From a virus (taxonomy: Duplodnaviria > Heunggongvirae > Uroviricota > Caudoviricetes): a stretch of 36,183 bases of DNA. A model generated the notes under the pieces. The model was not told where the DNA came from and made no database searches. It saw nothing but the letters and a program-made list of their open reading frames with translations. The position numbers and the translations under genes are program-made. Positions 1,671 through 36,183 of this stretch are shown in pieces (the first letter of the stretch is position 1; the number at the start of each line of letters is the position of its first letter). The stretch is from the IMG/VR virus record IMGVR_UViG_2737471857_000022; one strand, written 5' to 3'.

Positions 1671-1955
1671 ATGGCTACTTTTATTACCTATGCTGTCATC
1701 ATTACTATTCTGGCAGTTATTTCTGCTTATAAACTCGGAACCGAAAATAGAGAACGTGCTGAATTATTCTTAGGTGCGTTTGTTGCATTTTCTAGTCTCG
1801 CGTTAATTGTCGAAGGAATTTCTTATATTGTTGGCCTAGTTAGTATGACACTTTTTAACTTCCATCCGGCTATTTCTATGCATCTACTGCTTACTGTATG
1901 CTGGGTATATTGCTTAATCGAATTTTTAACGTTTGTTTTCAAACAGACTAAATAA
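1671..1955 (+). CDS. small integral membrane protein (94 aa, about 3 hydrophobic helices)
   Basis: ORF with AAGAGG SD; strongly hydrophobic segments (ITYAVIITILAVISAY, FLGAFVAFSSLALIV, LLLTVCWVYCLIEFLTFVF). Confidence 0.55.
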   Translation: MATFITYAVIITILAVISAYKLGTENRERAELFLGAFVAFSSLALIVEGISYIVGLVSMTLFNFHPAISMHLLLTVCWVYCLIEFLTFVFKQTK

Positions 1956-5772: not shown

Positions 5773-5861
5773 TAAATTTCTATTATAAATAAAATTGTTC
5801 CGGTGGTGATGCCGGAACTAGGAGGACCAAATCATTAAACCGTTTAAGGGGAATTAATACT

Positions 5862-6737: not shown

Positions 6738-6844
6738 TTAATTTTTAGCCTCGCCTCGTGCGGGGCTTTTTCATACCTACATCACGCGACTTTTCGCGCC
6801 ATCTTCCACCAACCCGCCGATGGCGTTTTGGACACCCTACAGAT

Positions 6845-6870
6845 ACAAAAAAGCCACTCCGAAGAGTGGC
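6845..6870 (-). terminator. rho-independent terminator for the minus-strand operon 7754 to 6886
   Basis: GCCACTC-TTCG-GAGTGGC hairpin; A6 on + strand is T6 downstream on the minus strand. Confidence 0.65.
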
Positions 6871-6885
6871 AAAGAGAATCAAAAC

Positions 6886-7113
6886 TCAAAAACCTGTTGC
6901 TTCTACGATCTGACCATCACCGATCTGAACATAGAATTTAATGTCTAACTTCTTCATATTCTTATAGAATTGGGCGATTGAGATCCCATGTTCACTAAGA
7001 ATCTGTTCTTTCGCTTCCTTACCACGATCCGCTGTATAATAAGCGTAGGCAATATCAGCCATCTGTTCAGCGTTAAAACGGGCAGGGCGACCGCGAGTAG
7101 CTTTAGTAGTCAT
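6886..7113 (-). CDS. small HTH DNA-binding protein (about 75 aa from the second ATG; ORF opens with GTG at 7146)
   Basis: RGRPARF...GISIAQFYKNMKKLDIK HTH, paralogous to CDS 3296..3478; GGAG SD suits the ATG at 7113. Confidence 0.5.
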   Translation of the reverse strand: MTTKATRGRPARFNAEQMADIAYAYYTADRGKEAKEQILSEHGISIAQFYKNMKKLDIKFYVQIGDGQIVEATGF

Positions 7114-14075: not shown

Positions 14076-14366
14076 ATGTTCAAATTATCAGAATCACAAT
14101 TATCAAGAATGTTTAAGAGTGCTCCTGTATTTTCGGTGGAAGGTGGTAAATCAATTCGTGCTTATCATGAAATTACTACTACCGACGAACAAGGGGTAAT
14201 GACAGAAACAGAATTTCTATTTTGTCGTGAGGGAGACTTAAAGCAAGGTGATATTGTCATTGTAGAAAATCAGCGTTTCAAAGTTCAATACGTTAAGCGC
14301 AATGGTGACAATACTTGTGATTGCTTTATCACTTTAGCAGGGGGTACACATGCTCGCTACCGTTAA
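14076..14366 (+). CDS. head-tail joining protein, lambda FII-like (96 aa)
   Basis: C-terminal LKQGDIVIVENQRFKVQYVKRNGDNTCDCFITLAG resembles lambda FII (LRRGDTLTIGEENFWVDRVSPDDGGSCHLWLG, recalled). Confidence 0.55.
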   Translation: MFKLSESQLSRMFKSAPVFSVEGGKSIRAYHEITTTDEQGVMTETEFLFCREGDLKQGDIVIVENQRFKVQYVKRNGDNTCDCFITLAGGTHARYR

Positions 14367-14772
14367 TAATATGCCGAGACTGAAAATCAAACGCGCCTTG
14401 CAAGATATTATCGAACAAGATTTAGGTCTGGCTTTAAACGTAGAACAAACTCAGCAAGGCTTTAGTGATGACGTGGTTTGTTGGATTACTGGCATGAATG
14501 AAACTTATACGCGTGTTCGTGGTGGTAATGCAATGCAAGCTGAATGCGTTATCGAAATGCAGTTATATTCTCAGATTCATGAAACGAAAATTCATGAGGG
14601 TATTTGCCAGATAATCCAGATTCAGCCAGATAACCCACGATTTAAAGATTTGGGCTTCTCTATTTCAGATATCACTCCAGTAGCTTCTAATACCGATTAT
14701 GACGATGATTCTAGTGATGGGGGTATCGTTGGGACACTTAGCCTTAAATTTTCTTATCTAGCGCGTTTTTAA
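14350..14772 (+). CDS. tail terminator, lambda gpU-like (140 aa)
   Basis: GGGGG SD; DVVCWITGMNETYT...QAECVIEMQL and C-terminal DYDDDSSDG resemble gpU (recalled). Confidence 0.5.
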   Translation: MLATVNNMPRLKIKRALQDIIEQDLGLALNVEQTQQGFSDDVVCWITGMNETYTRVRGGNAMQAECVIEMQLYSQIHETKIHEGICQIIQIQPDNPRFKDLGFSISDITPVASNTDYDDDSSDGGIVGTLSLKFSYLARF

Positions 14773-14781
14773 GGGGTAATA

Positions 14782-18600: not shown

Positions 18601-19097
18601 GTCTGCGTCGTGTTCCTAATGCATGGGGACAAGCAATTATTCGCGTTGGATCTGCGGAGGCATCGCCAGCGGCTGGTCATCCTCAAGCTGTATTCGAGTT
18701 CCATCATGATGGTACTTTTTACTGTCCTGGTAATGGTAACTTTAACGATGTTTATATTCGTTCCGATCGTCGTCTGAAAATTAATGTTGAAGATTACGAA
18801 GAAAATGCGGTGGATAAGGTAAATAAACTCAAAGTTAAAACCTACGATAAAGTTAAATCTCTTAATGACCGAGAAGTTATAGGTCATGAGATTGGTATTA
18901 TCGCACAGGATTTACAAGAGGTATTACCGGAAGCTGTTAAAACCGCAAAAATTGGTGGTTTTGATAACCCAGAAGAAATTTTAACAATTTCAAACTCCGC
19001 AGTGAACGCGCTTTTAATTAAAGCGGTCCAAGAAATGAGCGAAGAAAATAAACTTCTTCGTGAACGTCTTGCTGCAATTGAAGCTAAATTAGGGTAA
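15687..19097 (+). CDS. side (L-shaped-type) tail fibre with C-terminal intramolecular chaperone domain, T5 pb1-like (1136 aa)
   Basis: Four about 22-aa repeats (xIxxKVDxIKxxTDATIxAN) at aa 77-200. C-terminal 110 aa (YIRS/DRRLK...GIIAQDLQEVLPEAVK...NSAVNALLIKAV) resemble the S74-type chaperone of T5 pb1 and endosialidases (recalled). Confidence 0.85.
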   Translation: MQSIQFKRTNVSGKKPTPEQLQVGEVAINLKDHVIFTKDRDHEVVQISVSPETHAALESKVDANKQELDSTIAVNDRNIHAKVDEIKQTTDATIAANHAEINNKVDVIKRETDATIEANKNKAASDLAGVKAELSDTINANKNAAAVATQELDTRINKKVDDIKSRTDATIASNDKAINDKVDLIKAETDRTIAANKVYAENQLTDTYNNLTGVIAANKQEAADNVAALTRDVEAKNTAIHSKIDNNKVYTDSELARLESRIDAADGSADGKYIKKHVNTYTDGYLLSKTANYFDDPSARNLDYFGAFRMNDLAGHIALALHVPHPSGVNHARGFEFTYGSNPHATVRTYGYDELGHLAYSHRMYHEGDKPTPAEIGAYSKAEIDRLFQKTLNFGIEGGWFKLGTLTMPQQHGRTAKIRLVGGNGYNVGMNGQANIIELVIRCGNNSPKGVVFNAYYSIWYHEQHFCAIPTDGDNYDLYAYYGAHTGFVLAEYQVSSGGVSLNLLDTPEYLGGEKPVADEIFDALNISSFNNFSNRGTLNFGGNHQGQYDIEHLNEQQTNAKKMLRRFRSSAPATIWHETVDDNAYRLATGYEDTNQELLLTATTGLHIKKLTLDGGVGGNSGIDIRRGPNEASHFNFMDYRTGQDVRNGWFGFGDGQTKDFIWWNDNGQNSINLIENGELHITGGKGQKIVMNSEVALSENARLAVKGGNYGLILRNDGSGFHILTTNLKDSFGSWNNRRPFSYDFADGGLYLGGTETARCLHLGIDGSTRLEDNLFFKAGSRQSMDYMELVHWGASNTGRNNVLSLRDSKGFFAEFERLGDNTIKNSFFGKLKINRGSDAIIMNAESGDSSVYLLGTCADNNNWYIGKGGADNGLAFYSYATNAAVNITNAGDIALSPKGIEMTHVNNVRFYVHGERWTASQSGGWNDQWGLEAPIFVDHGYVSPDCYYPIIKGRSLITNQGYTTAVDFGLRRVPNAWGQAIIRVGSAEASPAAGHPQAVFEFHHDGTFYCPGNGNFNDVYIRSDRRLKINVEDYEENAVDKVNKLKVKTYDKVKSLNDREVIGHEIGIIAQDLQEVLPEAVKTAKIGGFDNPEEILTISNSAVNALLIKAVQEMSEENKLLRERLAAIEAKLG

Positions 19098-19135: not shown

Positions 19136-19432
19136 ATGGGATATTGGGTAAGTAGTGAAATTAATACTAAAATCGATGCTTTAAAATGGCATGTATTTGA
19201 TATTCCTAACGGCTATGGTACTGCTCGTGCTGGTGTCGCTGTAATGCGTCATAATGCTGGTGGTGGGTGGTCTGATGCACATATTAACGTAGATGGTTTG
19301 ACCGTTGCTCGTCGTCGTGGTGGGACCAATTGGGGATCTACTATAAATTCGTTTGTTCCTGCTGGCTGCACCGTCTCCTTTGGTTTAGGGGGTGAAGGTG
19401 GTGTTGAATATTTTAAATTCATGGAGTTTTAA
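19136..19432 (+). CDS. small fibre-module protein, paralogue A (98 aa)
   Basis: AAGGA SD; shares W..(F/Y)FDIPNG(W/Y), Gly-rich middle and TVSF...YFKF with the next two ORFs. Confidence 0.65.
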   Translation: MGYWVSSEINTKIDALKWHVFDIPNGYGTARAGVAVMRHNAGGGWSDAHINVDGLTVARRRGGTNWGSTINSFVPAGCTVSFGLGGEGGVEYFKFMEF

Positions 19433-19434
19433 TT

Positions 19435-19740
19435 ATGGCTGGATGGATAAATCAAAGAATGTCAAACGCTATTAGTATTTGGGCTAATGGTGGATATTTT
19501 GATATCCCCAACGGCTGGGTTACTGATTCATGCGGAATTGTTTTTGCTCATATGGAAGCCATTAACGGTGCTGGTGATCTTGATTCTGAATTGGCTGTAA
19601 ATGGATTGATTGAATCAGGTCATCATGCTGGTGATGCTGGGAGTTGGGGCGCTAGTTCTTTAGTTGGCGCTGGTGCTACCGTTAGCTTTACATTGGGTAA
19701 AGGTAGTTTGCATTATTTTAAATTCAGGAGAATGCACTAA
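19435..19740 (+). CDS. small fibre-module protein, paralogue B (101 aa)
   Basis: Start 2 nt after the stop of A; same motif set. Confidence 0.65.
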   Translation: MAGWINQRMSNAISIWANGGYFDIPNGWVTDSCGIVFAHMEAINGAGDLDSELAVNGLIESGHHAGDAGSWGASSLVGAGATVSFTLGKGSLHYFKFRRMH

Positions 19741-20042
19741 TGGCATTTTGGGTAGATGGCGCTTTGGGGAATAGGGCGGGTAAAGCAAATCAAGGATGGT
19801 TTGATATTCCTAACGGTTGGACAGCCGACGCTTTCGGGACTATTTCATTCTGTGCTCATTCTTCCGGTGGTGGCGGTGGTGACTCTGAATTGCTTATTCA
19901 TGGTTTGTGTGTTTCTGGAAGCCATAAGGGTCATGATTGGGGACAGATTCATTCTTGTATTGCACCGCAAGGGGCGGTAATTACCGTTAGCACAAATAGG
20001 GGGATCGCTCATCTTCGTTATAGACGTTTGAGCAACCGCTAA
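19740..20042 (+). CDS. small fibre-module protein, paralogue C (100 aa)
   Basis: TAATG stop/start overlap with B; same motif set, more diverged C-terminus. Confidence 0.6.
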   Translation: MAFWVDGALGNRAGKANQGWFDIPNGWTADAFGTISFCAHSSGGGGGDSELLIHGLCVSGSHKGHDWGQIHSCIAPQGAVITVSTNRGIAHLRYRRLSNR

Positions 20043-20096: not shown

Positions 20097-20567
20097 ATGA
20101 CTACTAAATTTGATATTTTTTCTGGTGGCCTCGTTGGTCTGTTTCTGCATGAAGAAGTAACTAACACCGATCTTGACAGTGAAAGCTATCTGGAAATTCC
20201 AGAATGTGCGGCTTTCCCGGAAACTGGTGTAGAACGTTCTACTATCGATGTTCCTAACTTCGGTGGTCCGTATAACCGTAAGCTGGTTGGTCGTATGTCT
20301 GTACCGGATATCGAACTTTCGATCAACTACATGCCGGGTAACGAAGTACACGAAAAACTGATTAAAGCAACCGAAGACGGTAAGCGCGTACAGCTTAAAA
20401 TTGCTTACTACATCGACGCTACGAAAAAATCTGGTGTGCACATCGCTTATAACGGCTTCCTGTCTAAAACTACCATGACGGGCGGTGAAGATGCTGTAGT
20501 AGGTCGTTCTTTCACCTTTGTAGTAGATGGTGCTCCGGTTAAACAAGCTGTTTTCCAGAAAGTCTAA
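20097..20567 (+). CDS. major tail tube protein, lambda gpV N-domain-like (156 aa)
   Basis: ELSINYMPGNEVHEKLIKATEDG resembles gpV [23 protein letters not shown] (recalled). Sits directly ahead of the chaperone pair and tape measure; strong terminator downstream. Confidence 0.7.
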   Translation: MTTKFDIFSGGLVGLFLHEEVTNTDLDSESYLEIPECAAFPETGVERSTIDVPNFGGPYNRKLVGRMSVPDIELSINYMPGNEVHEKLIKATEDGKRVQLKIAYYIDATKKSGVHIAYNGFLSKTTMTGGEDAVVGRSFTFVVDGAPVKQAVFQKV

Positions 20568-25081: not shown

Positions 25082-25501
25082 ATGCTAAAAACTAGGCTTA
25101 TCACCGATTATATCAATTCTTTAATAGGTCAGGAGTTCGTTCAAGGCGAGAATGATTGCAATCTCATTGCATGTAAGATCATCGATATTCTCGCTGGTAC
25201 TGACCTATATAATTCTCTTTATAAAAAATATTCAACTAAAGAAGAAGGCTTGAAAATCTGCAAAGAATTAAGCGGGTATTCAAATATCCTTCAACCAATT
25301 AAGAAACATTTCAAATTAGTCACTGATGATTTACAGGACGGCGACTTACTGGTCACAGCCCACAAATTAGGAAACCGCAAATATTATTCCGTAGTTCCTC
25401 ATTATTCCGGTTATGGCCTCGTTGAAGAAGATGGTATCTGGATGACCATTCCTGTTTCAGACATTGACTATGAACAAGTTTATAGATTCGGGGGTGAATA
25501 A
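25082..25501 (+). CDS. tail tip assembly protein, gpK position, NlpC/P60-like (about 139 aa)
   Basis: GGAGG SD; ENDCNLIACK with downstream His is compatible with a Cys-His NlpC/P60-type site; stop overlaps the J start. Confidence 0.45.
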   Translation: MLKTRLITDYINSLIGQEFVQGENDCNLIACKIIDILAGTDLYNSLYKKYSTKEEGLKICKELSGYSNILQPIKKHFKLVTDDLQDGDLLVTAHKLGNRKYYSVVPHYSGYGLVEEDGIWMTIPVSDIDYEQVYRFGGE

Positions 25502-28500
25502 TGGGATTTGAAGTATTGGTAGGCGCGGTTATTGCTGGTGCGTCTGCTGGGATGGCTGCTGCTGCAACATTTTCTGTTATGACCGCAGTCGCTATCGGTA
25601 TGGCTGCTGGTGCAATGACCTTGATTGCTTCCACTGTAGGCGCACCAAAAACACCGAAAGTACAAAGCCCAGATAATGCGGTGACACTAGGAACATCAAA
25701 CGATCCTAAGACAGTATTACCCGTCATTTTCGGTACTACCCGCACGGGTGCAATCTGCGTTTACAAAGCAATTTCACAGCGTGAAAACAACAAACTGGTA
25801 CAAATTTTTGCTATTTCCGAAGGTGAGATCGATCACTTTAAAGCACTGCACATCGATAATAAAAACGTTCTCATTAGTCAGAATATGACAATTCGTGATG
25901 GTATTCTCGATAAAGGAAACATTAAAGACGAATACCGCAAAGTGTTAGAAGTCGAGTTTCGCACTGGTAAAAATCCTAACACTGCATTGGATCTGGCTAA
26001 ACATCATTTGGGCGCTGATTGGGATGATCGGTATCAGGGTAACGGCATTGCGACCATGTGTATTGTTTTACGTCGTGATGACAAATCTCTTGCTGCTGGT
26101 GTTGATATTCTCCAGCCAAATAGCCAGGTAGCAGTAGACGTTTGCGGCCTTAAAATCCGTAACCTTGAAACCAATGCTATTGAGGCTAGCACTAACGGCG
26201 TGGACCAGATTTTCCACTACCTAACAAATGAAAAATATGGCTTATCCGTGCCAATTGAAAACATTAACGTTGATTCATTCCTGAAAGTACGTAAACAAGT
26301 ACGCCAGATGGATCTACATTCAAACGGTGCATGTGATCCGAACGCCAGCTTTAAAGAGAACTTGACTAATCTTATGCAGACTTTCGGCGGGGTGATGTTC
26401 GAATCCTTTGGACGTATTACGCTGAAACTGGATGCTCCTGATATTGTTAAGCATACCTTCAATGAAGACAATATCATGATGGGTAAGGTATCACTGAAAA
26501 CAGGTGGCACTAACGGTTATTTCAATACCATTAACGCGATGTATCAAGAACCATCAATTGACTATTCAGAGCAAATGCTACGTTATCCGGCTGATGCTGA
26601 AAACGATGCTACTATTCGTCAAGATGGTCGAATTATCGCTAAAGATATCGAATATCGTTTTGTTAAGTCTAAAGCCCAGATTGATAAACTAGCGAGTGTA
26701 GAACGAAATAAATCTCGTATCACTCAGGTTATCAGCTTCATGACTACTGACGCATTCACTGCCGAAGTTTGGGACGTTATCAGCGTAACCTATGATGAAT
26801 TAAAACTGAATAATTCACTTTGGCGCATTACTGCAATTGATCGCTCGATTGATTCTGGTATTGCTGGGATGATGACTATCACCGCCACAGAATATAATTC
26901 TCAGGTTTATACTGACCTGAACTATGCGGCGACTCCAGACAATAGACCTACTGGTTTACCGGATTCAATGACAGTACAGAAACCGACTAATTTCAGAATT
27001 AAGGCAACTGGTGAGACAATCCACGGTAAAAACGTAACTTTGACATGGGATGCACCGGAAGATTTCAACCGCTACGGTTTCCAGATTGATTACCGTGTAA
27101 GTGGATCGCCTAACTGGATTAAGCTGGGACAGACTTCACAGCAAATTTTCAATATCAATGCACTGGCAAAAGATCGCTCCTACGATTACCGCGTTTGTGC
27201 TTTCGGTATTATTGCTCGTTCCGAATGGGTGGAACTGGTTAACCAGAATCCAGAAGTTACCTATGAACTGCCTACGCCAGTGATCCGCATCAAAAATCAG
27301 GGTAGCACACCAGGAACTTTTGAAGGCAATGATCTGATTATCGAATGGGAAAATCAGCAAGCCTTAGATGTGGTTATCAACGGTGAAGCTAACAAGTTTA
27401 GTGACCTGTTTGAAGCATACATTATCAAGGTAACTAACAAGGCTGGTAAGTCTATTCAGTACCGTACCCGCGATCCTGAATCATGGACTTATACGCTTGA
27501 TATGAACCAGTTTAACGGCCTTTCGCGTGAATTGACGGTAGAAGTATCAGTCAAGGGCTATAACAACTCAGAGAGCGCCCCAGCGCGTTTAGTGGCTATT
27601 AACCCACAGCATAAGCCAATGAAAGGTTTTAGTGCGCGTGGTGGCTTTAATACTGCGTTTGTTATCTGGGCGGATGACGTAGAACATGACTATGCAGGGT
27701 CAATCATCCAGTATGCAACCGATAATACTTTCTCCGATGCAAGGGCAGTGACTACCAATAGCGTTAGTCATACTTCCTTTGATTTGGCTGACGGTGATTA
27801 TTATATCCGTGGTGCTCACTACGATATTTTCGGTATGGATGATGCTGTTTGGTCTGAACCGTATTTCATGCAAATGAAATCTACCATTAGTTGGGACGAT
27901 CAGGACAAAGAAGCACTGGAAGACCTGATCGGTTTACAAGATCGCTTAGATGAAACCATCGCGGATGCTATTGCTCAAGCTGGCGCTAATGCCGATGCTA
28001 AAATCGATGCAATGCATAAGCAAATCACTACCGAAACAGGGCAGACGGTCCAAGCCTCAGCCAATACCTTAAAGAGTCTGATTGCTACCAGCGAGCAAGC
28101 TAGCTCCACTAAGATTGATCAGGTTAAAGCTGAACTGAAAGGCGATATCACCAATGAAGTTAGCGCATCTGCTACTACCCTGAAACAAGCAATTGCTACC
28201 AGTGAGGCAGCAAGCGCAAGTAAGATTGATCAAGTTCGGGTAGAAATGGATGGCAAGATTGCTGGTGTGAATCAGGAAGCAGATGTAAAAATCGATGCTT
28301 TGAAGGGAACCATTAACAGCAAATATAATCTGGCGGTTAATGCAGATGGTCGCGTGGCTGGTATTCATATGAGCGCAACCAACGATCCGGCGCAACCGAC
28401 GAGAATCATCTTTACGGCTGATAAAATCGCGGTAGCTCCACAGAACGGATCGGAAGTATGCCCGTTTGGTATCGAAGATAACAAAGTTTATCTCGATAAT

Positions 28501-29277
28501 GCGATGATTCGTAATGCTGCAATTGGCACAGCCCAGATTAGTGATGCTAGTATCACCACGGCTAAAATCGGCACAGCCCAGATTAACGGCGCTCACATCC
28601 AACACGCACAGATCGGAACAGGTCATATTATTGATGGCTCTATCGATAATGCTAAAATTGGTAACTATATCCAGTCTTATAACTGGAATGGTAACGATGG
28701 ATGGTATATCGGGAAGGATGGCACTTGTCATTTTAGACACGCTAACATTCGTGGTCATTTGGTGGCTGATTCCGGCGAAATGAACAACGTAACGATTAAT
28801 TCAAGTTGCCGCATTTTGGGTATGCTTGATGCTAATCAGGTGCGTGGTGACTTCGTGAAAGCTATTGGTCGTCGATTCCCACATTGGGACGAAAACCCAT
28901 CATTGGGCTATCCCGGTTATCCGCAAGGTACAATCACTGTTCGAATTGAAGATGATCACCCGTTTGATCGTCAGATTATCGTTCCGGCTATTAGCTTTGG
29001 TGGTCTTAATGCGCGTGAAGGCTCGAATAACAATACTTACTATGATAACTGTCGCTTGATTGTTCGCAAGAACGGTGCTGAATTATATAACCGTGCATAT
29101 GGTAGACAGACTGGATTGTATAGTGCTGTTATTGATATGCCAGCCGGACACGGACCAGTTACGCTAACTTTTGAAGTAAGTTCAAGCGCAATCAACAACT
29201 GGACTCCCAGCACATGGATCAGCGATCTTTCTGTAATTGTTACTAAGAAAGCCGCGACTGGTATTTCTGTTTCTTAA
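25501..29277 (+). CDS. central tail fibre / host specificity protein, lambda gpJ-like (1258 aa), with hydrophobic N-terminal 45 aa
   Basis: N-terminal block LVQIFAISEGEIDHF matches the J motif. C-terminus (DDHPFDRQIIVP...DMPAGHGPVTLTFE...VIVTKKAATGISVS) resembles the lambda J receptor-binding end (recalled). Confidence 0.85.
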   Translation: MGFEVLVGAVIAGASAGMAAAATFSVMTAVAIGMAAGAMTLIASTVGAPKTPKVQSPDNAVTLGTSNDPKTVLPVIFGTTRTGAICVYKAISQRENNKLVQIFAISEGEIDHFKALHIDNKNVLISQNMTIRDGILDKGNIKDEYRKVLEVEFRTGKNPNTALDLAKHHLGADWDDRYQGNGIATMCIVLRRDDKSLAAGVDILQPNSQVAVDVCGLKIRNLETNAIEASTNGVDQIFHYLTNEKYGLSVPIENINVDSFLKVRKQVRQMDLHSNGACDPNASFKENLTNLMQTFGGVMFESFGRITLKLDAPDIVKHTFNEDNIMMGKVSLKTGGTNGYFNTINAMYQEPSIDYSEQMLRYPADAENDATIRQDGRIIAKDIEYRFVKSKAQIDKLASVERNKSRITQVISFMTTDAFTAEVWDVISVTYDELKLNNSLWRITAIDRSIDSGIAGMMTITATEYNSQVYTDLNYAATPDNRPTGLPDSMTVQKPTNFRIKATGETIHGKNVTLTWDAPEDFNRYGFQIDYRVSGSPNWIKLGQTSQQIFNINALAKDRSYDYRVCAFGIIARSEWVELVNQNPEVTYELPTPVIRIKNQGSTPGTFEGNDLIIEWENQQALDVVINGEANKFSDLFEAYIIKVTNKAGKSIQYRTRDPESWTYTLDMNQFNGLSRELTVEVSVKGYNNSESAPARLVAINPQHKPMKGFSARGGFNTAFVIWADDVEHDYAGSIIQYATDNTFSDARAVTTNSVSHTSFDLADGDYYIRGAHYDIFGMDDAVWSEPYFMQMKSTISWDDQDKEALEDLIGLQDRLDETIADAIAQAGANADAKIDAMHKQITTETGQTVQASANTLKSLIATSEQASSTKIDQVKAELKGDITNEVSASATTLKQAIATSEAASASKIDQVRVEMDGKIAGVNQEADVKIDALKGTINSKYNLAVNADGRVAGIHMSATNDPAQPTRIIFTADKIAVAPQNGSEVCPFGIEDNKVYLDNAMIRNAAIGTAQISDASITTAKIGTAQINGAHIQHAQIGTGHIIDGSIDNAKIGNYIQSYNWNGNDGWYIGKDGTCHFRHANIRGHLVADSGEMNNVTINSSCRILGMLDANQVRGDFVKAIGRRFPHWDENPSLGYPGYPQGTITVRIEDDHPFDRQIIVPAISFGGLNAREGSNNNTYYDNCRLIVRKNGAELYNRAYGRQTGLYSAVIDMPAGHGPVTLTFEVSSSAINNWTPSTWISDLSVIVTKKAATGISVS

Positions 29278-29295
29278 AATTTAATTCTAATAATT

Positions 29296-29337
29296 AATCC
29301 CGCTTAATTCTTTTGAGTTAGGCGGGATTATTTTTAT
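29296..29337 (+). terminator. terminator after the J-like gene
   Basis: AATCCCGC...GCGGGATT 8-bp stem, 18-nt loop, then ATTTTTAT. Confidence 0.55.
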
Positions 29338-29379
29338 CTAAATAATTCTGCCATTAAATTATAAAATATCGGGGGCGTA

Positions 29380-29658
29380 ATGACTGAAATTATATATGGC
29401 GGTATCGGTGTTATCGCCTTAATTTGTGGTGGTCTTTGGAGACTTCACCGAAATCAATTAGCAACAGAAAATAGATTGTCGAAATTAGAGTCCAATGATG
29501 CATTGTTTAATCAGAAGTTTGAAACAATGCAAAGTAACCACGACCAGATCGCCGAGAGAGTTTATCGCATGGAACAAACACTACACGGTATAGAGAAGAA
29601 AGTGGTTGCGATGGACGCTAAGTTTGACCAAGTTCTCGACATACTCAAACAAAAATAA
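29380..29658 (+). CDS. membrane-anchored coiled-coil protein (92 aa); possible holin or spanin-like lysis component
   Basis: N-terminal TM segment IYGGIGVIALICGGLW followed by a charged helical region; GGGGG SD. Confidence 0.45.
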   Translation: MTEIIYGGIGVIALICGGLWRLHRNQLATENRLSKLESNDALFNQKFETMQSNHDQIAERVYRMEQTLHGIEKKVVAMDAKFDQVLDILKQK

Positions 29659-29676
29659 TAATAAAGGGGTGAATAT

Positions 29677-29847
29677 ATGAAGAATAAACTTAAGAAATAT
29701 TTTGGTTATCTCTTGATTATCGCCCTCACTTATAACGTAGCAATTAGACCTCTGCTAACGTCCTTTGGGCTTGAACTCCCGGCTATGACCGTGGATGAAC
29801 AATTGCTAAGGACACTGGCGGGGGTCTTTTCGTTATTAGGGGGCTAA
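29677..29847 (+). CDS. small membrane protein (56 aa, two hydrophobic segments); holin/antiholin candidate
   Basis: ORF below the 60-aa track cut-off, found by reading; AAAGGGG SD; stop abuts the next ATG. Confidence 0.4.
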   Translation: MKNKLKKYFGYLLIIALTYNVAIRPLLTSFGLELPAMTVDEQLLRTLAGVFSLLGG

Positions 29848-29848
29848 C

Positions 29849-30532
29849 ATGGCAACCAGTACCAATAAACGAAACGCTCTAAGGACTAAGAAAGCGTTAC
29901 GGCAATGGTCTGATAAAGCAACCGATACATTCGAAAGGGCGATAGGGGAAGGGGCGATCTTTGCTGCTCGTGCACTCCAGAAGAAGATTAACAAGAATGT
30001 TGATAGACCTACTCGATGGACTCAGCAAGCTGTAGGTAATACCAACTACAAGAACCGATCAGGGACGAGACACCAAATCTTCATCAAGGGCGCAAGGGAT
30101 AAGGACAAGAAGATCGGCAGTCAGGATGACTATCTGAAACACTATTTCGATGGTGGCAAAATCAATAAGCTAGTGCCAATCGCCAACGGTCAGGTCTTAG
30201 ACTCCCACGGGAACATTAAGGCCATCAAAGGCGGTAAGATGATGCGTAACATCGAAAACGGCAACTTCATCAAGGTAGAGAACAAGGAAGGGACTTTTAT
30301 CATGAAGAAGTACAAGCCTAAGAAATCCCGAACCAAACGCGCTAGGAATGGATCGGCGGTGGCAAAACGTCGCTTAGAGAAACGCATACAGAAACAGAGC
30401 AAGCGAATTGTTGCCGTTAAGTCAGATAAAATTTCTACTCGTTATTCGACGCTAGGATCGTGGGAAAGCAACGAGGAAATGATGCTTAAGAACATTAATA
30501 AGCACATTAAATCGCGCATGAGATACGTTTAA
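29849..30532 (+). CDS. highly basic Lys/Arg-rich protein (227 aa), function unknown
   Basis: ORF translationally coupled to the upstream small ORF; about one quarter of residues are K or R. Confidence 0.6.
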   Translation: MATSTNKRNALRTKKALRQWSDKATDTFERAIGEGAIFAARALQKKINKNVDRPTRWTQQAVGNTNYKNRSGTRHQIFIKGARDKDKKIGSQDDYLKHYFDGGKINKLVPIANGQVLDSHGNIKAIKGGKMMRNIENGNFIKVENKEGTFIMKKYKPKKSRTKRARNGSAVAKRRLEKRIQKQSKRIVAVKSDKISTRYSTLGSWESNEEMMLKNINKHIKSRMRYV

Positions 30533-30570
30533 TCCATAAATACCCTCATAGAATCTTATGGGGGTATAAC

Positions 30571-30918
30571 ATGGCTAAAAATATTTTCACTGAATTTCCT
30601 ACTTATCCGGTCGATCAGCTTTCCGGTATTTTTATTAATGGCATTAGCCCAGAATCTATGACACATGATTTTGAGGCGAAGAGAGTTAAACATAAACAAT
30701 ATAAAGAATGTATCCGCGATCATGAAAAAGGGACCGTGTTTTGTGTCGCTACATTGGCTAAACGTCCTAAATATCGTTTTCGTGTAGGGCAAGAAGTTGA
30801 TGTAGTTAATCCTTATAGCTTTAACTGTCTGGGTGATGCACGCGCGGTGTGTGTAGGCACTGCTCCTTATTATATCAAGGGTATGCGCTTTATTGGTTAT
30901 ATCTTCGAAATGATCTAA
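30571..30918 (+). CDS. hypothetical protein (115 aa)
   Basis: GGGGGT SD lying inside hairpin 30542-30565. Confidence 0.55.
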   Translation: MAKNIFTEFPTYPVDQLSGIFINGISPESMTHDFEAKRVKHKQYKECIRDHEKGTVFCVATLAKRPKYRFRVGQEVDVVNPYSFNCLGDARAVCVGTAPYYIKGMRFIGYIFEMI

Positions 30919-30927
30919 GGGGGTAAT

Positions 30928-31281
30928 ATGTTAAGTAAGCATTTTTCTCGCAAGGAATTTAAATGTAAATGCGGAAAATGTGATTATGATACAATCGACG
31001 CTGAATTACTGGTAATTCTTGAGGATGTACGAGAACACTTCGGTAAACCAGTGATTATTAACAGTGGCAACCGTTGCCCGGCTCATAACAAGAATGTAGG
31101 CGGGGCAACCAACAGCTATCACGTTCGAGGCCGTGCGGCTGACATTGTGGTCAAGGGTGTCTCCCCTGATATTGTCCATGCTTATCTTGATGGGAAATAT
31201 CCTACTCAATACGGCTTAGGAAAATATAAAACCTTTACGCATATTGATTCCAGATCAAAAAAATCACGGTGGAATGGATAA
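30928..31281 (+). CDS. endolysin, zinc peptidase M15 family (117 aa)
   Basis: SGNRCPAHNKNVGGATNSYHVRGRAADIVV ... FTHID gives a His/Asp/His metal-ligand pattern typical of M15 peptidases; TAAGGGGGTAAT SD. Confidence 0.75.
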   Translation: MLSKHFSRKEFKCKCGKCDYDTIDAELLVILEDVREHFGKPVIINSGNRCPAHNKNVGGATNSYHVRGRAADIVVKGVSPDIVHAYLDGKYPTQYGLGKYKTFTHIDSRSKKSRWNG

Positions 31282-31287
31282 AATTAA

Positions 31288-31311
31288 AGCGCCTCTAGTG
31301 GGCGCTTTTTT
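31288..31311. terminator. bidirectional terminator between convergent genes
   Basis: AGCGCC-TCTAGTG-GGCGCT with T6 on + strand and an A/T tract on the other side. Confidence 0.65.
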
Positions 31312-31312
31312 G

Positions 31313-31894
31313 TTAGAATATGCTGGCGACGTTAGCTATATTTCTGACCATTTTTTCATTATAAACAAACGTTTCTGTAGCACCTTCTTTAATATCAAAA
31401 TCACCTTTTACTAGGTTTTTCTTGATAAACAATTCTGCCGCGTATGCGTCTTTTTCGTCTTGAAATTCGAAAGTCTCGATGATATCAAATTTCATCTTAT
31501 TCTGGCATCTTAGCTTATGTTTTCTCGTCAACACATTGTGACTTACTCCAACCTTACCCACATCACCACACCGCATAACATATAATACTGGTTGCCCATT
31601 TTTATATTTGTTGTCATATTTGCTACGATTACACGGGCACACAGTAGGATTATGTAAGAATTGTTTTGCTGTTATATCTCTGATTCTTGCGCAGCTTTCA
31701 CACTCTAGCACAATACGGCTATTGATTGATTTATACTCACCTTTGAATCCGTGATAAATCAAGGGTAAACCCTCGTTTTCAATACGGGTCACGATCCTTG
31801 CTTCCATATCAATTGGATGTGATGGCGCTTTGCCATTTTTGGTGCGGATAAAATTGAACGGGATATCACATGCTTTGCGCACATCATTCATCAT
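31313..31894 (-). CDS. zinc-ribbon plus GIY-YIG-like (T5orf172-type) domain protein (about 193 aa from ATG 31894; ORF opens at GTG 31906)
   Basis: CESCARIRDITAKQFLHNPTVCPC then PVLYVMRCGDVGKVGVSHN..R..H; paralogous to CDS 32423..33421; GAGG SD. Confidence 0.55.
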   Translation of the reverse strand: MMNDVRKACDIPFNFIRTKNGKAPSHPIDMEARIVTRIENEGLPLIYHGFKGEYKSINSRIVLECESCARIRDITAKQFLHNPTVCPCNRSKYDNKYKNGQPVLYVMRCGDVGKVGVSHNVLTRKHKLRCQNKMKFDIIETFEFQDEKDAYAAELFIKKNLVKGDFDIKEGATETFVYNEKMVRNIANVASIF

Positions 31895-31934
31895 AAAAAA
31901 CCTCACTTAATTTATCTTATAGGCATTACCTTTA

Positions 31935-32387
31935 ATGTTGATGATCGAGTTCGTAGAAACCGAATTAACTAAACTGGCTTCCGAAATGGAAGAAGAAACT
32001 CCGGCAGAAGGAACCAGTATTAACGATCTTATTCTGGCAGCAGACACCGCAGATGATAAAGTGATATTCGACGAAGTTGATCCGTCTCTGGTTGAAGCAA
32101 TGAAAGAACCTGAGATCGCCATTGAAGAAACAAAAGAAGAATCTCCAGCAGTTGAACCAGTGGTCGAAGAAGTTAAGTCAGATGTTGAAGAAGCACCGGA
32201 AGTTAAAGTGGAATCTCCGGTAGCCAACATTTTCTCTAACGAAGCAGAACATCGTTCCCCAGCACATGACACTGATTCATTTTGCGATCTTACTGGCTTC
32301 CGTCCGACCATTTGCTTGATCGGTGGCGGTCGTGGTTACTACTCCTGCCCGTGGTCTTCAACCATTACAACAAATTTTTCTCAATAA
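31935..32387 (+). CDS. acidic low-complexity protein (150 aa); existence uncertain
   Basis: Glu/Pro/Val/Ala-rich ORF with host-like codon usage but no clear SD; the antisense ORF 31907..32311 is an alternative reading. Confidence 0.35.
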   Translation: MLMIEFVETELTKLASEMEEETPAEGTSINDLILAADTADDKVIFDEVDPSLVEAMKEPEIAIEETKEESPAVEPVVEEVKSDVEEAPEVKVESPVANIFSNEAEHRSPAHDTDSFCDLTGFRPTICLIGGGRGYYSCPWSSTITTNFSQ

Positions 32388-32422
32388 ATAGTAGTGAACT
32401 TATTATTTTCGAGGACACTAAT

Positions 32423-33421
32423 ATGAATACTACTTTAGCAAAGGATATCGAATTTACCGCAAAAAGCAAACGTGCGACCCCTCCGGTCGAATATGAAACC
32501 AGAATCATTAAAGTTTGTCAAGCGCATGGATGGTTATACAGTGGTTTTGTGCTTCCTGTAAAGAAACCATTCCAGAACACCAAAGTTTGCATAGAAGTTA
32601 ACGGAAAGGTTAAAACGCCATGTATTAGTCATGTTCTAACTGGTCAGTTTACTGGCAAAGATAGAGTATCACCGCCTAAGAAGAAGTTTAGATTTACCGA
32701 AGAAGAACACTTAGAAAACGCTCGCAAGTTCTACAAGCCGATAGGGTGGGATGTGTTAGGTCTGGCTGAACCTTATCAGGGTGTTGACACTAAACTAATT
32801 CTTCGTTGTAAGTGCCACGGAAAGATTCACAAGAAAGGTGATTTACACAATAACCGCAGACAAGGCGGGTTAACATGCCCTTTGGTTAGGGGTGTACTTA
32901 AATCAATTCAGAATGGTAGAAAACAGGTTATCAGAAACAAGTTTGCACAGCGCCCTATGCACTTTTATCTAATTCGTGTTGGCGAGAAGTTTTTCAAATA
33001 TGGAATTACCACTCGCAAAGATCCGATGCAACGGGTAAGAGAACACCAGAAGCACACCAGCGAGAAAATCACCTTTGAATGCTCACATTTGTTTAACATT
33101 GGATGGAAAGCTGGTGATTTAGAAATGGGGATTAAAAAGAATATTCAGGGCAAGAAAATCCCACGTAAGGTAATGAATAGCGGATTCACAGAAACGCTAC
33201 CGATTAGCAAGCTGAAAGATGTTAAATCATTCATCAATGAATACATCCACACCAACCCATCTAAGCCAATGTATTTTGATGATACCAACGCAATCAATCT
33301 GAACAACTACATTAGTGATGAAGACATAGAACGAGATTTATCGCAGTGGATGAATGCACCGTTAGCTGATTTAACACCGGAAAACTTAGAACTCGATTTA
33401 AGCCCTTTAGAGGCTCTCTAA
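32423..33421 (+). CDS. zinc-ribbon plus GIY-YIG-like (T5orf172-type) domain protein (333 aa from ATG 32423)
   Basis: GAGGA SD 7 nt upstream; LRCKCHGKIHKKGDLHNN...LTCP then MHFYLIRVGEKFFKYGITTR...R.REH; paralogue of 31313..31894. Confidence 0.6.
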   Translation: MNTTLAKDIEFTAKSKRATPPVEYETRIIKVCQAHGWLYSGFVLPVKKPFQNTKVCIEVNGKVKTPCISHVLTGQFTGKDRVSPPKKKFRFTEEEHLENARKFYKPIGWDVLGLAEPYQGVDTKLILRCKCHGKIHKKGDLHNNRRQGGLTCPLVRGVLKSIQNGRKQVIRNKFAQRPMHFYLIRVGEKFFKYGITTRKDPMQRVREHQKHTSEKITFECSHLFNIGWKAGDLEMGIKKNIQGKKIPRKVMNSGFTETLPISKLKDVKSFINEYIHTNPSKPMYFDDTNAINLNNYISDEDIERDLSQWMNAPLADLTPENLELDLSPLEAL

Positions 33422-33494: not shown

Positions 33495-35174
33495 TTAAAT
33501 TCCAAATTCCTGTAATGGACCTGATATTTCCTCTTCTGGTTTCCAGTTCTTATCTGTCAGCATGTCTAAACATGGATGCAAAACAAGCCCGTTACTTTCC
33601 AGAATCTGTCTATCATTGATAGTTTTCAAATCAACGAAGATCCGGCCTTTCCTCGGTCCTCTTGAATTTTCTATTACAACTCTCTGGGTCTTGCCATCGA
33701 TGTATTCCAGTACAAACAAGTTTTTGTACTTGTCAATCCTGCTACACCCGATCCGTTTTAGAGCTTGCTTAATCTTAAACCGGACCTTAATGCGATCCTC
33801 GTTGTAAACATCTTCTAAATCAAATTCTGCGAGCTTCTCCCAGCCTTGAGAGTCAACAGAATACATTTCCTCTTCTGCCATCTTGATCTGATTGTAGAGT
33901 GTTTCACGCTCGCTATTGAGGGTAGTAATCTGATCGGCTAGTTCCTTCGTTGCTCCTGTCATAGCAGAAAGGGCAATCAGGTTATCAATCTTGCGTGATA
34001 TCTCATCAACCTGTACTTTCAACGCCGGAACCGGATTAGCCTTATCCTCAGCAATCCAGATTTTATCAGCCAGCAATTGCAATACAGCTTTCTCTAATTG
34101 ATCACCTCGAAAACTCCAGTTTGTATGCACACATGCAATACGACTAGAGCGCATTGCATCGCATGAATAACGATATTGGTTAGGACGTTTGTTAGTTCCT
34201 TTCACCTTAACCATAGCGGAACCGCAATGTTCACATTTCAATAGACCAACACCACTAAGCAAGGGAATAGGTTTAACTTCTTCCTTGTCTCCATAGTTAC
34301 ATGCTCTAACACCAATGCTTTTCTTAAGGTGATAAAACTCAGCGTCATCTAGCACACGAGGATAATAATCCTTTAACTCATACTTAACGCCATCTACAGA
34401 GATTTCCTTGATACCAATCAAAGCGCGGGTATGGAACAACCTTTCAATCATTGCCCGTGACCAGTTTGAATGCCTCTTGTGACTTGCGGCTGGTGGTGGT
34501 GTGTATGTCGCGTTAAGGTGATCCAGTATCTCGGCGGTTGACCGTCCATTCCTGCGTAATTCCACAACTTCCTGAACAATAGGGAAGAAGACCGGATGAG
34601 GAAGCACATAACCAGATGTGGTATCAGTCCACCACATATTCTTTCCAATTTCCTCGATTGCAACAGCCGGATTTTGTGGATTTTCTTGATGAGCTTTAAT
34701 CTTAATCAATGCGCTTGAGTTAGTACGATTGCGCTTAGTCTGACTTTCCTCGTTAGCTCTCGCAAACAACATGACACTCAACAGCAAATCAATAGGATTG
34801 GCATTAACCGATTCCTTGCTATAGACCTTACCATCCATGCCAGTTACGATAGTTATTCCCCTACGGATAATCGAGAGAAATAGCTCTTGTGCTTCAATGA
34901 TGGATTGGCGAGAGATACGGTCTAAGTTTTCCACAACCAGCCAGCTACCAACCGGAACGGATCGACCAATCTCATCCAGAAAGCGAGATAGTGCACCTGT
35001 TCTACTGTTAGCCCCTTTGAATGCAGATACACCAAAATCCTGATAGCTTGTAACTAGCTCAAGATCATATTTTGCGGCTATCTCTGCGGCTGTTCTCTTC
35101 TGGCGTTCATAAGAACTACCATCCGCTTGCTTCATAGACGAGAAGCGAATATACGAATACAGTTTAGTTTTCAT
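33495..35174 (-). CDS. large serine recombinase (phage integrase), about 559 aa from ATG 35174
   Basis: N-terminal resolvase motifs YIRFSSMKQ, SYERQ, LVVENLDRISRQ; zinc ribbon CEHCGSAMV...YSCDAMRSSRIAC; C-terminal coiled coil. Confidence 0.85.
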   Translation of the reverse strand: MKTKLYSYIRFSSMKQADGSSYERQKRTAAEIAAKYDLELVTSYQDFGVSAFKGANSRTGALSRFLDEIGRSVPVGSWLVVENLDRISRQSIIEAQELFLSIIRRGITIVTGMDGKVYSKESVNANPIDLLLSVMLFARANEESQTKRNRTNSSALIKIKAHQENPQNPAVAIEEIGKNMWWTDTTSGYVLPHPVFFPIVQEVVELRRNGRSTAEILDHLNATYTPPPAASHKRHSNWSRAMIERLFHTRALIGIKEISVDGVKYELKDYYPRVLDDAEFYHLKKSIGVRACNYGDKEEVKPIPLLSGVGLLKCEHCGSAMVKVKGTNKRPNQYRYSCDAMRSSRIACVHTNWSFRGDQLEKAVLQLLADKIWIAEDKANPVPALKVQVDEISRKIDNLIALSAMTGATKELADQITTLNSERETLYNQIKMAEEEMYSVDSQGWEKLAEFDLEDVYNEDRIKVRFKIKQALKRIGCSRIDKYKNLFVLEYIDGKTQRVVIENSRGPRKGRIFVDLKTINDRQILESNGLVLHPCLDMLTDKNWKPEEEISGPLQEFGI

Positions 35175-35193
35175 ACCATTTCCAAACAAAAAC

Positions 35194-35796: not shown

Positions 35797-36183
35797 TTAA
35801 GCGCGAACGATGGTCAGAGTATCCAGCAAACCTTTTTCGTATAATTCGAAACACGTTTTATATTGCTCAATCTGGAAACCATAGCGGGTGATCTTATTCA
35901 GTAGAATAATCACGGTATTCTCATCTAGGTATTGTCCTTGCTTACCAATTACATATGACTCGCGGGATAGTCTCAGCTTACGGAAACCTTTAACACCTAA
36001 TTCCTTAGCCACCGCTTTAATCTCTTTAATCTCACCCTCAGCAGCTACATATTCAGCGTCGATAATCTCAGGTGATGATCTCAGTGCTACCAGAACTAAG
36101 GCCATTGCTTCTTCTTCGGTACGAGCAACACCAGCTTTCTCGAAAGTCATCTCGCCAAATTTACGAATCATGATATTGAACAT
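35797..36183 (-). CDS. hypothetical protein, at least 128 aa; start at or beyond the window edge
   Basis: ORF runs to the last base of the window; no family recognised. Confidence 0.5.
   Translation of the reverse strand: MFNIMIRKFGEMTFEKAGVARTEEEAMALVLVALRSSPEIIDAEYVAAEGEIKEIKAVAKELGVKGFRKLRLSRESYVIGKQGQYLDENTVIILLNKITRYGFQIEQYKTCFELYEKGLLDTLTIVRA

Follow-up and report, generated by a model that had tools for sequence, protein, structure and literature searches.

The question raised by this locus is what a strongly basic protein of 227 residues, here called p227, does between genes for small membrane proteins and the gene of an endolysin. The window, that is, the whole 36,183-nt stretch of DNA that was analysed, is an essentially complete E. 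coli siphovirus prophage (~36 kb, with hicB as insertion site), which is found in 55 of 5,426 complete genomes and which combines lambda-type terminase, portal, FII and J genes with a distal tail of the GTA/T5 type. The J-like gene is the final gene of the tail module, and directly 3' of it follow five tightly packed ORFs on the + strand, encoding proteins of 92, 56, 227, 115 and 117 aa (p92, p56, p227, p115 and p117; Table 1). A terminator-like hairpin separates J from these five genes, and no sigma-70-like promoter is found when the + strand from this hairpin to position 29380 is scanned.

The first-pass annotation had listed these ORFs as a lysis cassette with an embedded basic protein, and all five are confirmed at their coordinates and on the + strand. 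From their sequences they are genuine genes, since a GGGGG Shine-Dalgarno-like run is present 5' of all five start codons, internal stops are absent from 25 closely related loci (9-24 distinct alleles for each ORF), and the pN/pS values in these loci are low (~0.04-0.13 across the five ORFs, with 0.09 for p92, 0.13 for p56 and 0.04 for p115), indicating purifying selection. The composition of p227 is as basic as had been described, with 56 Lys and Arg residues (25%) versus 19 Asp and Glu residues and a pI of 10.76; its hydropathy profile has no hydrophobic segment, and a signal segment is absent. The reading of p92 and p56 as small membrane proteins also stands, with one hydrophobic segment in each. 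The coupling of the basic protein to a putative holin ORF is real, because the stop codon of p56 precedes the start codon of p227 by one base; the ribosome-binding site of p227 lies inside the last codons of p56.

Table 1. Positions, in the window, of the features discussed in the text
Feature	Position	Strand	Basis
TerS-like gene	1018-1578		after the integration module, downstream of the cassette once the prophage is circularised
94-aa protein with three hydrophobic segments, early region	1671..1955	+	hydropathy, RBS
Canonical neck position: FII-like head-closure gene and 140-aa ORF	14076..14772	+	Pfam Phage_attach 1.9e-4 for 14076-14366
Lambda J-like tail tip / central fibre protein, 1258 aa	25501..29277	+	Pfam Ig_GpJ_C 2.1e-35, Phage_Tail_Tip 1.3e-18; PHROG tail fibre families
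Terminator-like hairpin (16 pairs, then T run) between J and the cassette	29295..29330	+	sequence scan
p92, Gly-rich N-terminal TMD (IIYGGIGVIALICGGLW), then charged coiled-coil-like tail; holin or holin-accessory candidate	29380..29658	+	hydropathy
p56, basic N-terminus, one TMD, amphipathic C-terminal part; holin candidate	29677..29847	+	hydropathy
p227, putative member of the tail completion protein class (gpZ / HK97 gp10 / Ne1), strongly basic	29849..30532	+	profiles, fold model, charge
p115, conserved	30571..30918	+	between tail completion gene and endolysin in every enterobacterial relative
p117, Peptidase_M15_3 endolysin	30928..31281	+	Pfam PF08291 2.1e-28 over the full profile; PHROG 894 'endolysin' 2.3e-46
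Bidirectional terminator-like hairpin at the 3' end of the cassette	31286..31308		sequence scan

Family and predicted fold of p227

When p227 itself is compared with curated models, nothing is found at E <= 0.1 in Pfam, neither PF06763 (Minor_tail_Z) nor the HK97 gp10 family, and no match is found in NCBIfam; genes of this type are left 'hypothetical' by PGAP. Its own match is to PHROG 1924 'minor tail protein', and this match is weak (E 1.4e-3). PHROG 1924 is also matched by 9 of 15 relatives, and one of the relatives (P0017) matches it over its full length at 2.4e-33, together with a faint match to PHROG 27 'tail completion or Neck1'. The widened family comprises 225 proteins, from which 74 relatives were taken for the Pfam, charge and AF2 work. 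PF06763 is matched by 20 of these 74, full-length and above the gathering cut-off for the three relatives that were tested against it, and each other Pfam family is matched by at most one member. A profile built from 60 members of <28% identity recovers p227 with an E-value of 1.8e-16 and no further ORF of the window. A transitive profile link, via these intermediates, thus connects p227 with the Minor_tail_Z / PHROG 1924 family. For the 'minor tail protein' label, as used for PHROG 1924 and for gp44 of the Rhodobacter phage RcCronus, no experimental basis was found.

The direct similarity with lambda gpZ, the prototype tail completion protein (PF06763), is marginal: hhalign of the p227 family against gpZ alone gives an E-value of 0.0018 at a probability of 15%, covering the N-terminal 70 columns only, and the HMM score of 11.4 bits ranks 1/2001 against shuffled sequences with one profile and 10/2001 with the other. 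In size and composition the two proteins are nonetheless comparable (192 aa for gpZ versus 227 aa, pI 12.0 versus 10.8, and 24% versus 25% Lys and Arg), and all 74 relatives are basic as well, with pI values of 10.2-12.0. The search of PDB sequences with the family profile returned adenovirus pre-protein VI at E 0.13, which is dismissed as a chance match.

The AF2 model of p227, calculated with the input widened to the 74 sequences, has a pLDDT of 83.3 and a pTM of 0.73; the seven close homologues alone gave a pLDDT of 45. [quoted passage not shown] The named matches of the model in BFVD are mostly HK97-gp10, type I neck or tail component proteins; a Foldseek search against the PDB gave nothing significant. 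Compared with p227, 80alpha gp51 (PDB entry 9MU2, chain P; HK97 gp10 family) is half the size (109 aa), shares 10% identity, and has neither the beta domain nor the Lys/Arg-rich insertion. Its gene is at the canonical neck position, in a phage that packages by headful and not from cos ends.

At the level of profiles and of a predicted model, the family assignment and the fold of p227 are established by these data, and its location in the virion and its function may be deduced by analogy. p227 is most likely a tail completion protein of the lambda gpZ / HK97 gp10 class, with a probability of roughly 0.8 for this explanation of the five-gene unit as a whole, and thus most likely a divergent representative of an established family of virion proteins rather than a new lysis factor. 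It would be the single tail completion protein of this phage, in the class of gpZ, HK97 gp10, SPP1 gp16.1 and 80alpha gp51, and, by analogy with these proteins, it would join the finished tail in very low copy number. The tail completion protein of 80alpha is located inside the tail lumen at the neck, where it contacts the DNA end and the tape measure protein (PMC11661146), and the Lys/Arg richness of p227 may similarly serve contacts with DNA and the tail lumen, not an attack on membranes. A place at the distal end of the late unit, behind a terminator, would suit such a protein, because only one to few copies are needed per virion. The proposal of an internal virion protein or nucleic-acid binder had therefore come close to the best-supported reading and is refined here to the tail completion class. 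With p227 read in this way, the cassette is a mixed unit and not a pure lysis unit: the endolysin and the two small membrane proteins are real, and they are accompanied by a displaced tail gene and by p115, which is of no assigned function.

Gene position in the prophage and its relatives

The gene of p227 is outside the position that usually defines its class, an observation that counts against the tail reading. The gpZ gene lies in the neck/tail module, between FII and U. The p227 gene, in contrast, does not have the head-closure gene on one side and the tail terminator or major tail genes on the other; it comes after J, with a membrane-protein gene upstream of it and the endolysin gene downstream. 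The neck module of the prophage has W-like and FII-like genes and no tail completion gene that is detectable with the family profile, as was checked for the neck regions 14076-15615 and 19136-20042. In all relatives examined the tail completion gene is likewise outside the neck module, either in the cassette or just 5' of the small terminase gene and cos, and the extra-neck placement is a trait of this lineage.

The order membrane protein, tail completion protein, ~110-aa protein and endolysin is kept in seven loci (L001, L034, L035, L036, L038, L040 and DCP80), in which the endolysin can be of the M15_3, M15_4 or GH24 type. The presence of the p227 gene beside membrane-protein and endolysin genes across three endolysin types might point to a connection with lysis. 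The position and architecture of p92 are kept in seven divergent loci, and p115 is 29-81% identical across seven loci. p115 has zero matches in Pfam, PHROGs, NCBIfam and PDB sequences and is without similarity to lambda gpU; L007 and L008 have 130-aa genes 3' of the tail completion gene, to which homology of p115 is not demonstrated (E 0.052). For p56, comparison with the PHROG 2024-like membrane proteins of DCP80, L007 and L008 by hhalign gives an E-value of 4.2e-5, the PHROG 2024 matches having E-values of 1.2e-6 and 4e-4, and, as judged from these alignments, p56 is probably homologous to these proteins, which are encoded just 5' of the tail completion gene. The phage collection, queried at both nucleotide and protein level with the cassette and p227, yielded no matches, tblastn searches against phages with p92, p115 and the L007 membrane protein gave nothing useful, locus searches with single proteins returned near-identical loci only or none, and the scan of species-representative genomes found no related locus.

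RcCronus gp44 (PHROG 1924) is of the same sequence family as p227, at ~18% identity, and comes from a phage of a like type, with a GpA terminase, a protease-capsid fusion and a GTA-like distal tail. Its gene is also outside the neck module. Unlike for p227, no other gene separates it from cos and TerS, no membrane-protein gene lies upstream, and the endolysin is encoded elsewhere. T5 p143 (tail completion protein / Neck1) belongs to the same class as p227 by class membership, and a domain of the T5 pb9-type distal tail protein is present in relatives of the prophage. The T5 protein has its gene in the canonical position, yet it sits, in monomeric form, at one side of the tail tip and not at the neck (PMC11784142).

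It is conceivable, if unlikely, that more than inherited gene order lies behind the strictly conserved and translationally coupled pair of p56 (PHROG 2024-like) and the tail completion protein, taken with p92 and p115. In one version, the genes would form a new spanin-independent lysis module, in which p56 and p92 would be a new holin/accessory pair and p115 or another product would breach the outer membrane. In the other version, the tail completion protein would be functionally tied to the membrane protein, for example by being co-delivered to the host envelope at infection, and the gene position near the tail-tip gene would echo the unexpected tip-side location of T5 p143.

It is less probable, and rather doubtful, that p227 is a cytoplasmic packaging accessory that binds the DNA end or cos, or a late-gene regulator, which would share the gpZ-like fold and not be part of the tail. 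This would be in agreement with the very basic character of p227, with the position of its homologue just before TerS or the genome end in RcCronus (which has cos ends), L007, L008 and L045, with the TerS-like gene that follows the cassette and the integration module in the circularised prophage, and with the endonuclease VII gene beside the homologue in DCP80, L007, L008 and L046. However, lambda-type phages also hold late and lysis genes before the terminase genes, such that position alone is uninformative, and p227 and its relatives match no DNA-binding or terminase-related family in the databases searched, Pfam and NCBIfam among them; the consistent family and fold matches are only to tail completion proteins. 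Contact with DNA cannot separate the tail and packaging readings either, since gpZ is proposed to act on the DNA end from inside the tail (PMC11661146).

Lysis functions and the spanin search

The LAS-type metal ligands of p117, read from the translation, are H65, D72 and H105 (H-x6-D ... H), and with the profile matches of Table 1 they bear out its earlier assignment as an M15 endolysin. There is no signal or SAR segment and no hydrophobic window in p117. By its sequence p117 is a cytoplasmic endolysin, and as such it would need a hole-forming holin. In p92 the hydrophobic segment covers approximately residues 4-22 and is followed by a heptad-like charged region, for which Pfam gives weak coiled-coil matches only. 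In 8/8 homologues the TMD is preceded by an acidic residue and followed by clustered Arg, Lys and His residues, and from this charge distribution and the positive-inside rule an N-out/C-in topology with a cytoplasmic coiled coil is predicted. The outline of p92 resembles that of Lcc6 of the Shewanella prophage LambdaSo: a TMD at the N-terminus, then a cytoplasmic tail, in a protein whose gene lies close to the integrase end of a lambda-like prophage. The releasin gp25 of phage Mu is also a small lysis accessory protein with a single TMD; p92 has no DUF2730 match, and its identification as a Mu-type releasin was dropped. In p56 there is one clear hydrophobic segment at approximately residues 9-30, and the net charge is ~+3.

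When p92 and p56 are compared with holin families, no match is significant, the best being PHROG 1296 at E 0.05 for a homologue. Their size, hydrophobic segments and position suggest that p56 and/or p92 may act as holin or holin-accessory protein, as does the p56-like protein of L007 and L008, which is the only membrane protein adjoining the lysozyme there. The product of 1671..1955, alone among the remaining small membrane proteins of the prophage in having a ribosome-binding site, is an alternative holin candidate or else a candidate superinfection-exclusion protein.

Strict and relaxed lipobox scans, using every start codon in the six frames of 29280-31300, find no lipoprotein-type ORF on the coding strand, as had been stated for the outer spanin. 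A spanin pair encoded elsewhere was also sought, and the strict scan of the whole window gives one poor candidate of 51 aa, at 909-754 on the - strand. This ORF has a TTG start, a very short signal and an acidic soluble neighbour, is not RefSeq-annotated, and is far from the lysis genes, with neither a lysis gene nor an i-spanin-like gene beside it; as an o-spanin it was rejected. With no recognisable spanin encoded, disruption of the outer membrane would be spanin-independent or would be achieved by an unrecognised product. LambdaSo differs in this respect, having a pinholin, a SAR endolysin and nested spanins, whereas the E. coli prophage encodes a cytoplasmic M15 endolysin but no spanin.

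About 15% of the phages of Gram-negative hosts are without a spanin, and at least one of them uses a cationic peptide instead (bioRxiv 10.1101/515445). Since p227 is extremely cationic, and its gene is coupled to a membrane-protein gene and adjoins endolysins of three families in divergent relatives, it might be a cationic lysis factor that takes the place of the missing spanin and destabilises the outer membrane after endolysin action, in the manner of an enlarged phiKT disruptin, or that acts with p56 at the inner membrane. The disruptin, phiKT gp28, is likewise the cationic product of a spanin-less phage, but it is an amphipathic peptide of 56 aa, whereas p227 is a protein of 227 aa with a confident globular model, belongs to a virion protein family and lacks a hydrophobic or signal segment; p56 matches gp28 in length but is hydrophobic, a membrane protein of low net charge. 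The profiles and the predicted fold place p227 in the tail completion class, and the homologues of RcCronus, L006 and L045 adjoin neither an endolysin nor a membrane protein. The earlier suggestion of a non-canonical lysis factor is also weakened by the fact that the basicity that had prompted it is a family trait, common to gpZ and all relatives, even those away from lysis genes. A lysis role for p227 is therefore very improbable.

The least likely proposal is that all five ORFs form a pure lysis cassette in which p92 is i-spanin-like and p115 or p227 is its non-lipoprotein partner at the outer membrane: the outline of p92 (N-terminal TMD, then coiled coil) and the match of its DCP80 counterpart to PHROG 739 'Rz-like spanin' (E 0.001) would agree with it, but this match is weak and typical of coiled-coil cross-matches, the conserved charges of p92 predict the opposite topology from that of an i-spanin, and neither p115 nor p227 has a signal peptide, a lipobox or a TMD.

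Implications for tail completion and lysis

Almost all long-tailed phages have a tail completion protein, and these proteins are still poorly understood. Their place in the virion was first seen in 2024, and the reports disagree, with the protein inside the neck in 80alpha (PMC11661146) and at the tail tip in T5 (PMC11784142). With p227, a divergent tail completion subfamily is recognised, whose gene is always outside the neck module, and this displaced subfamily accounts for apparent gaps in automated neck classification. The assignment is also a caution that ORFs in the neighbourhood of an endolysin are not all lysis genes. The prophage, being common in E. coli and inducible, is a tractable system for studying a tail completion protein. 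It is also a clean case of a spanin-less coliphage with a cytoplasmic endolysin, in which p92, p56 and p115, encoded beside the endolysin, are reasonable candidates for new holin types or spanin substitutes.

The cassette and the assignment of p227

The five ORFs of the cassette have exactly the coordinates given by the first-pass annotation, and all five are real, constrained genes, because 25 closely related loci carry 9 to 24 distinct alleles per ORF, none with an internal stop, at pN/pS values of about 0.04–0.13. A GGGGG run precedes each of the five starts, and the spacers are 18, 1, 38 and 9 nt. Terminator-like hairpins are found 3' of J, the lambda J-like tail-tip gene (29295-29330, 16 pairs), and 3' of the endolysin gene (31286-31308, bidirectional). 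In total the terminator scan gave eight such sites, with 2.1 expected; the promoter scan detected no sigma-70-like promoter on the plus strand before 29380. The region 29300-31300 is present in 55 of 5,426 complete E. coli genomes (megablast), and four of the five ORFs are 'hypothetical protein' in the PGAP annotation.

It is likely (probability about 0.8) that the basic protein p227 is a divergent member of the tail completion class of lambda gpZ, HK97 gp10, SPP1 gp16.1 and 80alpha gp51, as suggested by transitive profiles, the predicted fold, the charge and the lack of another candidate. A transitive profile, the fold, the charge and single copy agree with membership, and a direct match to a curated model and the canonical gene position are not found.

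Close homologues are rare, with six clusters in a search of 5.8 billion sequences and 12 matches at E <= 0.001 among 1.8 billion cluster representatives. P0017, a distant relative, belongs over its full length to PHROG 1924 'minor tail protein' (2.4e-33) and faintly matches PHROG 27 'tail completion or Neck1 protein', and PHROG 1924 is matched by 9 of 15 relatives and by p227 itself (1.4e-3). No experimental basis was found for the 'minor tail' label of gp44 of Rhodobacter phage RcCronus, which was added to the profile together with the homologue of Escherichia phage DCP80 (PQ671644.1), so that the family grew to 225 proteins. Pfam PF06763 (Minor_tail_Z, lambda gpZ) is matched by 20 of the 74 aligned members, no other Pfam family being matched by more than one; three members tested singly are above the gathering threshold and cover the whole model. 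There is no direct Pfam match for p227. Among all 130 window ORFs, a profile of 60 members less than 28% identical to p227 retrieves p227 at 1.8e-16 and no second family member (next best E 0.33). The comparison with the lambda gpZ sequence alone is marginal (hhalign E 0.0018, 15% probability); the HMM score is 11.4 bits, which against 2001 shuffles takes first place with one profile but only tenth with the other.

The AlphaFold model (74-sequence alignment, pLDDT 83.3, pTM 0.73) opens with a 49-residue helix at the N-terminus and closes with one of 20 residues at the C-terminus; between them are a beta hairpin, a short helix, a small beta domain and a helical insertion rich in Lys and Arg. 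This predicted fold agrees with the published descriptions of gp51, which has a long, bent N-terminal helix, a loop that carries a hairpin and a short helix, and a C-terminal helix, and of lambda gpZ, whose apex bears an additional beta domain (PMC11661146). In BFVD, two unnamed matches are found (E 1.7e-6 and 1.2e-4, TM 0.53–0.59), and among the weaker, named ones HK97-gp10, type I neck or tail component proteins predominate; Foldseek against the PDB gave nothing significant. The Lys/Arg-rich character noted previously is confirmed (56 Lys+Arg, pI 10.76, no hydrophobic segment). It is a class trait, with pI 12.0 and 24% Lys+Arg in lambda gpZ and pI 10.2–12.0 in all 74 relatives.

Gene order in related phages

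The position of the p227 gene is unusual for the class and typical of the lineage, the gene being outside the neck module in every relative inspected. In seven divergent loci the order is J, a TM and coiled-coil protein (90–153 aa), a small TM protein (54–59 aa), the tail completion protein (29–60% identical to p227), a protein of about 100–117 aa and the endolysin, which is of type M15_3 (L001, L034, L035, L040), M15_4 (L036, L038) or GH24 (DCP80). In the prophages among them a serine recombinase gene usually follows. The metagenomic phages L007 and L008 have a divergent lysozyme gene, endonuclease VII, a TM protein, the tail completion protein, a 130-aa protein, TerS and TerL, and in RcCronus (cos ends) and locus L045 no further gene separates the tail completion gene from TerS or the contig end. 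Once the present phage is circular, its TerS-like gene likewise comes after the cassette and integration module. From these orders, the subfamily is placed at the distal or pre-terminase end of the late region. This is the place of S, R and Rz in lambda. Dosage may be the reason: 80alpha has one tail completion protein monomer per virion (PMC11661146), and expression would be low for a gene that closes the late unit and lies beyond a terminator.

An endonuclease VII-type gene, absent from the window, adjoins the membrane protein and tail completion pair in DCP80 (6301-6768), L007 (3153-3611), L008 (872-1315) and L046 (9347-9844). The DCP80 record does not annotate two conserved membrane-protein ORFs (5814-6275 and 6753-6926; 153 and 57 aa). 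Although this 141-kb record bears the label of a T4-like Gaprivervirus and has motA, it contains a siphovirus J-like gene and the cassette, and may be a chimeric assembly. L046 (Kluyvera intermedia CP162029.1), in which tail assembly chaperone and tape measure genes come directly after the tail completion and p115-like genes and host genes come after these, is a scrambled or remnant relative.

The prophage and its late genes

The window is an essentially complete E. coli prophage of about 36 kb, inserted in hicB, the antitoxin gene of the hicAB toxin-antitoxin locus, so that this gene is split into 5' and 3' fragments (window 1-351 and 35797-36183; also L003 and L042, related loci). The left end holds the 5' part of hicB, and the right end lies just before the 3' fragment of strain ETEC1717. 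At the head end the late genes resemble those of lambda, and a T5/GTA-type distal part of the tail follows before the lambda J-like tip.

Features of the prophage with their window coordinates
Feature	Coordinates	Strand	Remarks
TerS-like protein	1018-1578	+	N-terminal HTH, acidic tail
94-aa protein	1671-1955	+	early region; three hydrophobic segments, good ribosome-binding site
GpA-type large terminase	7842-9749		lambda-like head end
W-position 'head-tail joining' gene, portal, protease-capsid fusion			lambda-like head end
FII-like gene	14076-14366		lambda-like head end
PHROG 158 'major tail protein', first	14782-15615	+	277 aa, 1.9e-10
Tail fibre	15687-19097	+	1136 aa; within neck/tail region
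PHROG 158 'major tail protein', second	20097-20567	+	156 aa, 1.1e-19
Lambda J-like tip protein	25501-29277		tail end
p92, membrane protein	29380-29658	+	cassette
p56, membrane protein	29677-29847	+	cassette
p227	29849-30532	+	cassette
p115	30571-30918	+	cassette
p117, endolysin	30928-31281	+	cassette
CapR/T5orf172-type genes	31313-31906; 32282-33421	-; +	PHROG 681 'endonuclease', 2.2e-22; 5.2e-20
Ser/Thr-rich 134-aa ORF	31907-32311	-	antisense to next; either of the two may be the real gene
Very acidic 150-aa ORF	31935-32387	+	PHROG 1051 'minor head protein inhibitor of protease', 1e-20
Large serine recombinase gene (minus strand)	33495-35189		

Some 6 kb separate the TerS-like gene from the large terminase gene downstream of it, and the intervening genes are unrelated, a part of them being on the opposite strand; the TerS-like product is 35% identical (E 8e-22) to that of the DCP80 gene downstream of the endolysin. 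In its distal part, the fibre gene reaches 92.7% DNA identity with the gene for gp37, the distal subunit of the long tail fibre, in T4-like phages (KFS-EC and MIZ4 among them); a temperate siphovirus and virulent T-even phages seem to have recently exchanged a receptor-binding module. Between the two PHROG 158 ORFs lie the fibre gene and three small ORFs, each about 100 aa long; the first PHROG 158 ORF is possibly a decorated tube protein or fibre anchor. The two CapR/T5orf172-type genes sit between endolysin and recombinase, where relatives have a UvsW-like helicase.

Lysis genes and the outer membrane

The M15 endolysin and two small membrane proteins proposed previously are recovered. p117 is a Peptidase_M15_3 endolysin (Pfam 2.1e-28; PHROG 894 2.3e-46) with the ligands H65, D72 and H105 and no signal or SAR segment, and p92 and p56 have one clear hydrophobic segment each. 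p56 is probably a homologue, as judged from profile comparison (hhalign E 4.2e-5; PHROG 2024 E 1.2e-6 and 4e-4), of the PHROG 2024-like membrane proteins whose genes immediately precede the tail completion gene in DCP80, L007 and L008. The p56 type is the best holin candidate, because L007 and L008 have no other membrane protein next to the lysozyme. The coupling of the basic ORF to this putative holin ORF holds in all loci, with a stop-start spacing of 0–8 nt (1 nt here). Apart from p92 and p56, the 94-aa protein of the early region is the one small membrane protein of the prophage whose gene has a ribosome-binding site. It could be either a superinfection-exclusion protein or the true holin, which would then be class I-like and encoded at a distance from the endolysin.

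In every homologue of p92 the TMD is preceded by an acidic residue and followed by a cluster of Arg, Lys and His, from which an N-out/C-in topology is predicted, with the coiled coil in the cytoplasm. This is unlike an i-spanin and similar in outline to the lysis accessory Lcc6 of LambdaSo; p92 has no DUF2730 (releasin) match. For p115, no relative is detectable outside these cassettes, nor any similarity to gpU.

Scanning every start codon in six frames detects no lipobox ORF in the cassette and, in the whole prophage, a single unconvincing 51-aa TTG ORF (909-754, minus strand), so the absence of an outer spanin extends to the entire element. p227 is rejected as a spanin, disruptin or other recognisable lysis protein in favour of the tail completion class. 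The first-pass interpretation is partly supported: the M15 endolysin and the missing spanin stand, and the reading of p227 as a lysis factor is not supported. The lack of a spanin in this coliphage, whose endolysin is cytoplasmic, is not exceptional in itself, since about 15% of phages of Gram-negative hosts have none (bioRxiv 10.1101/515445).
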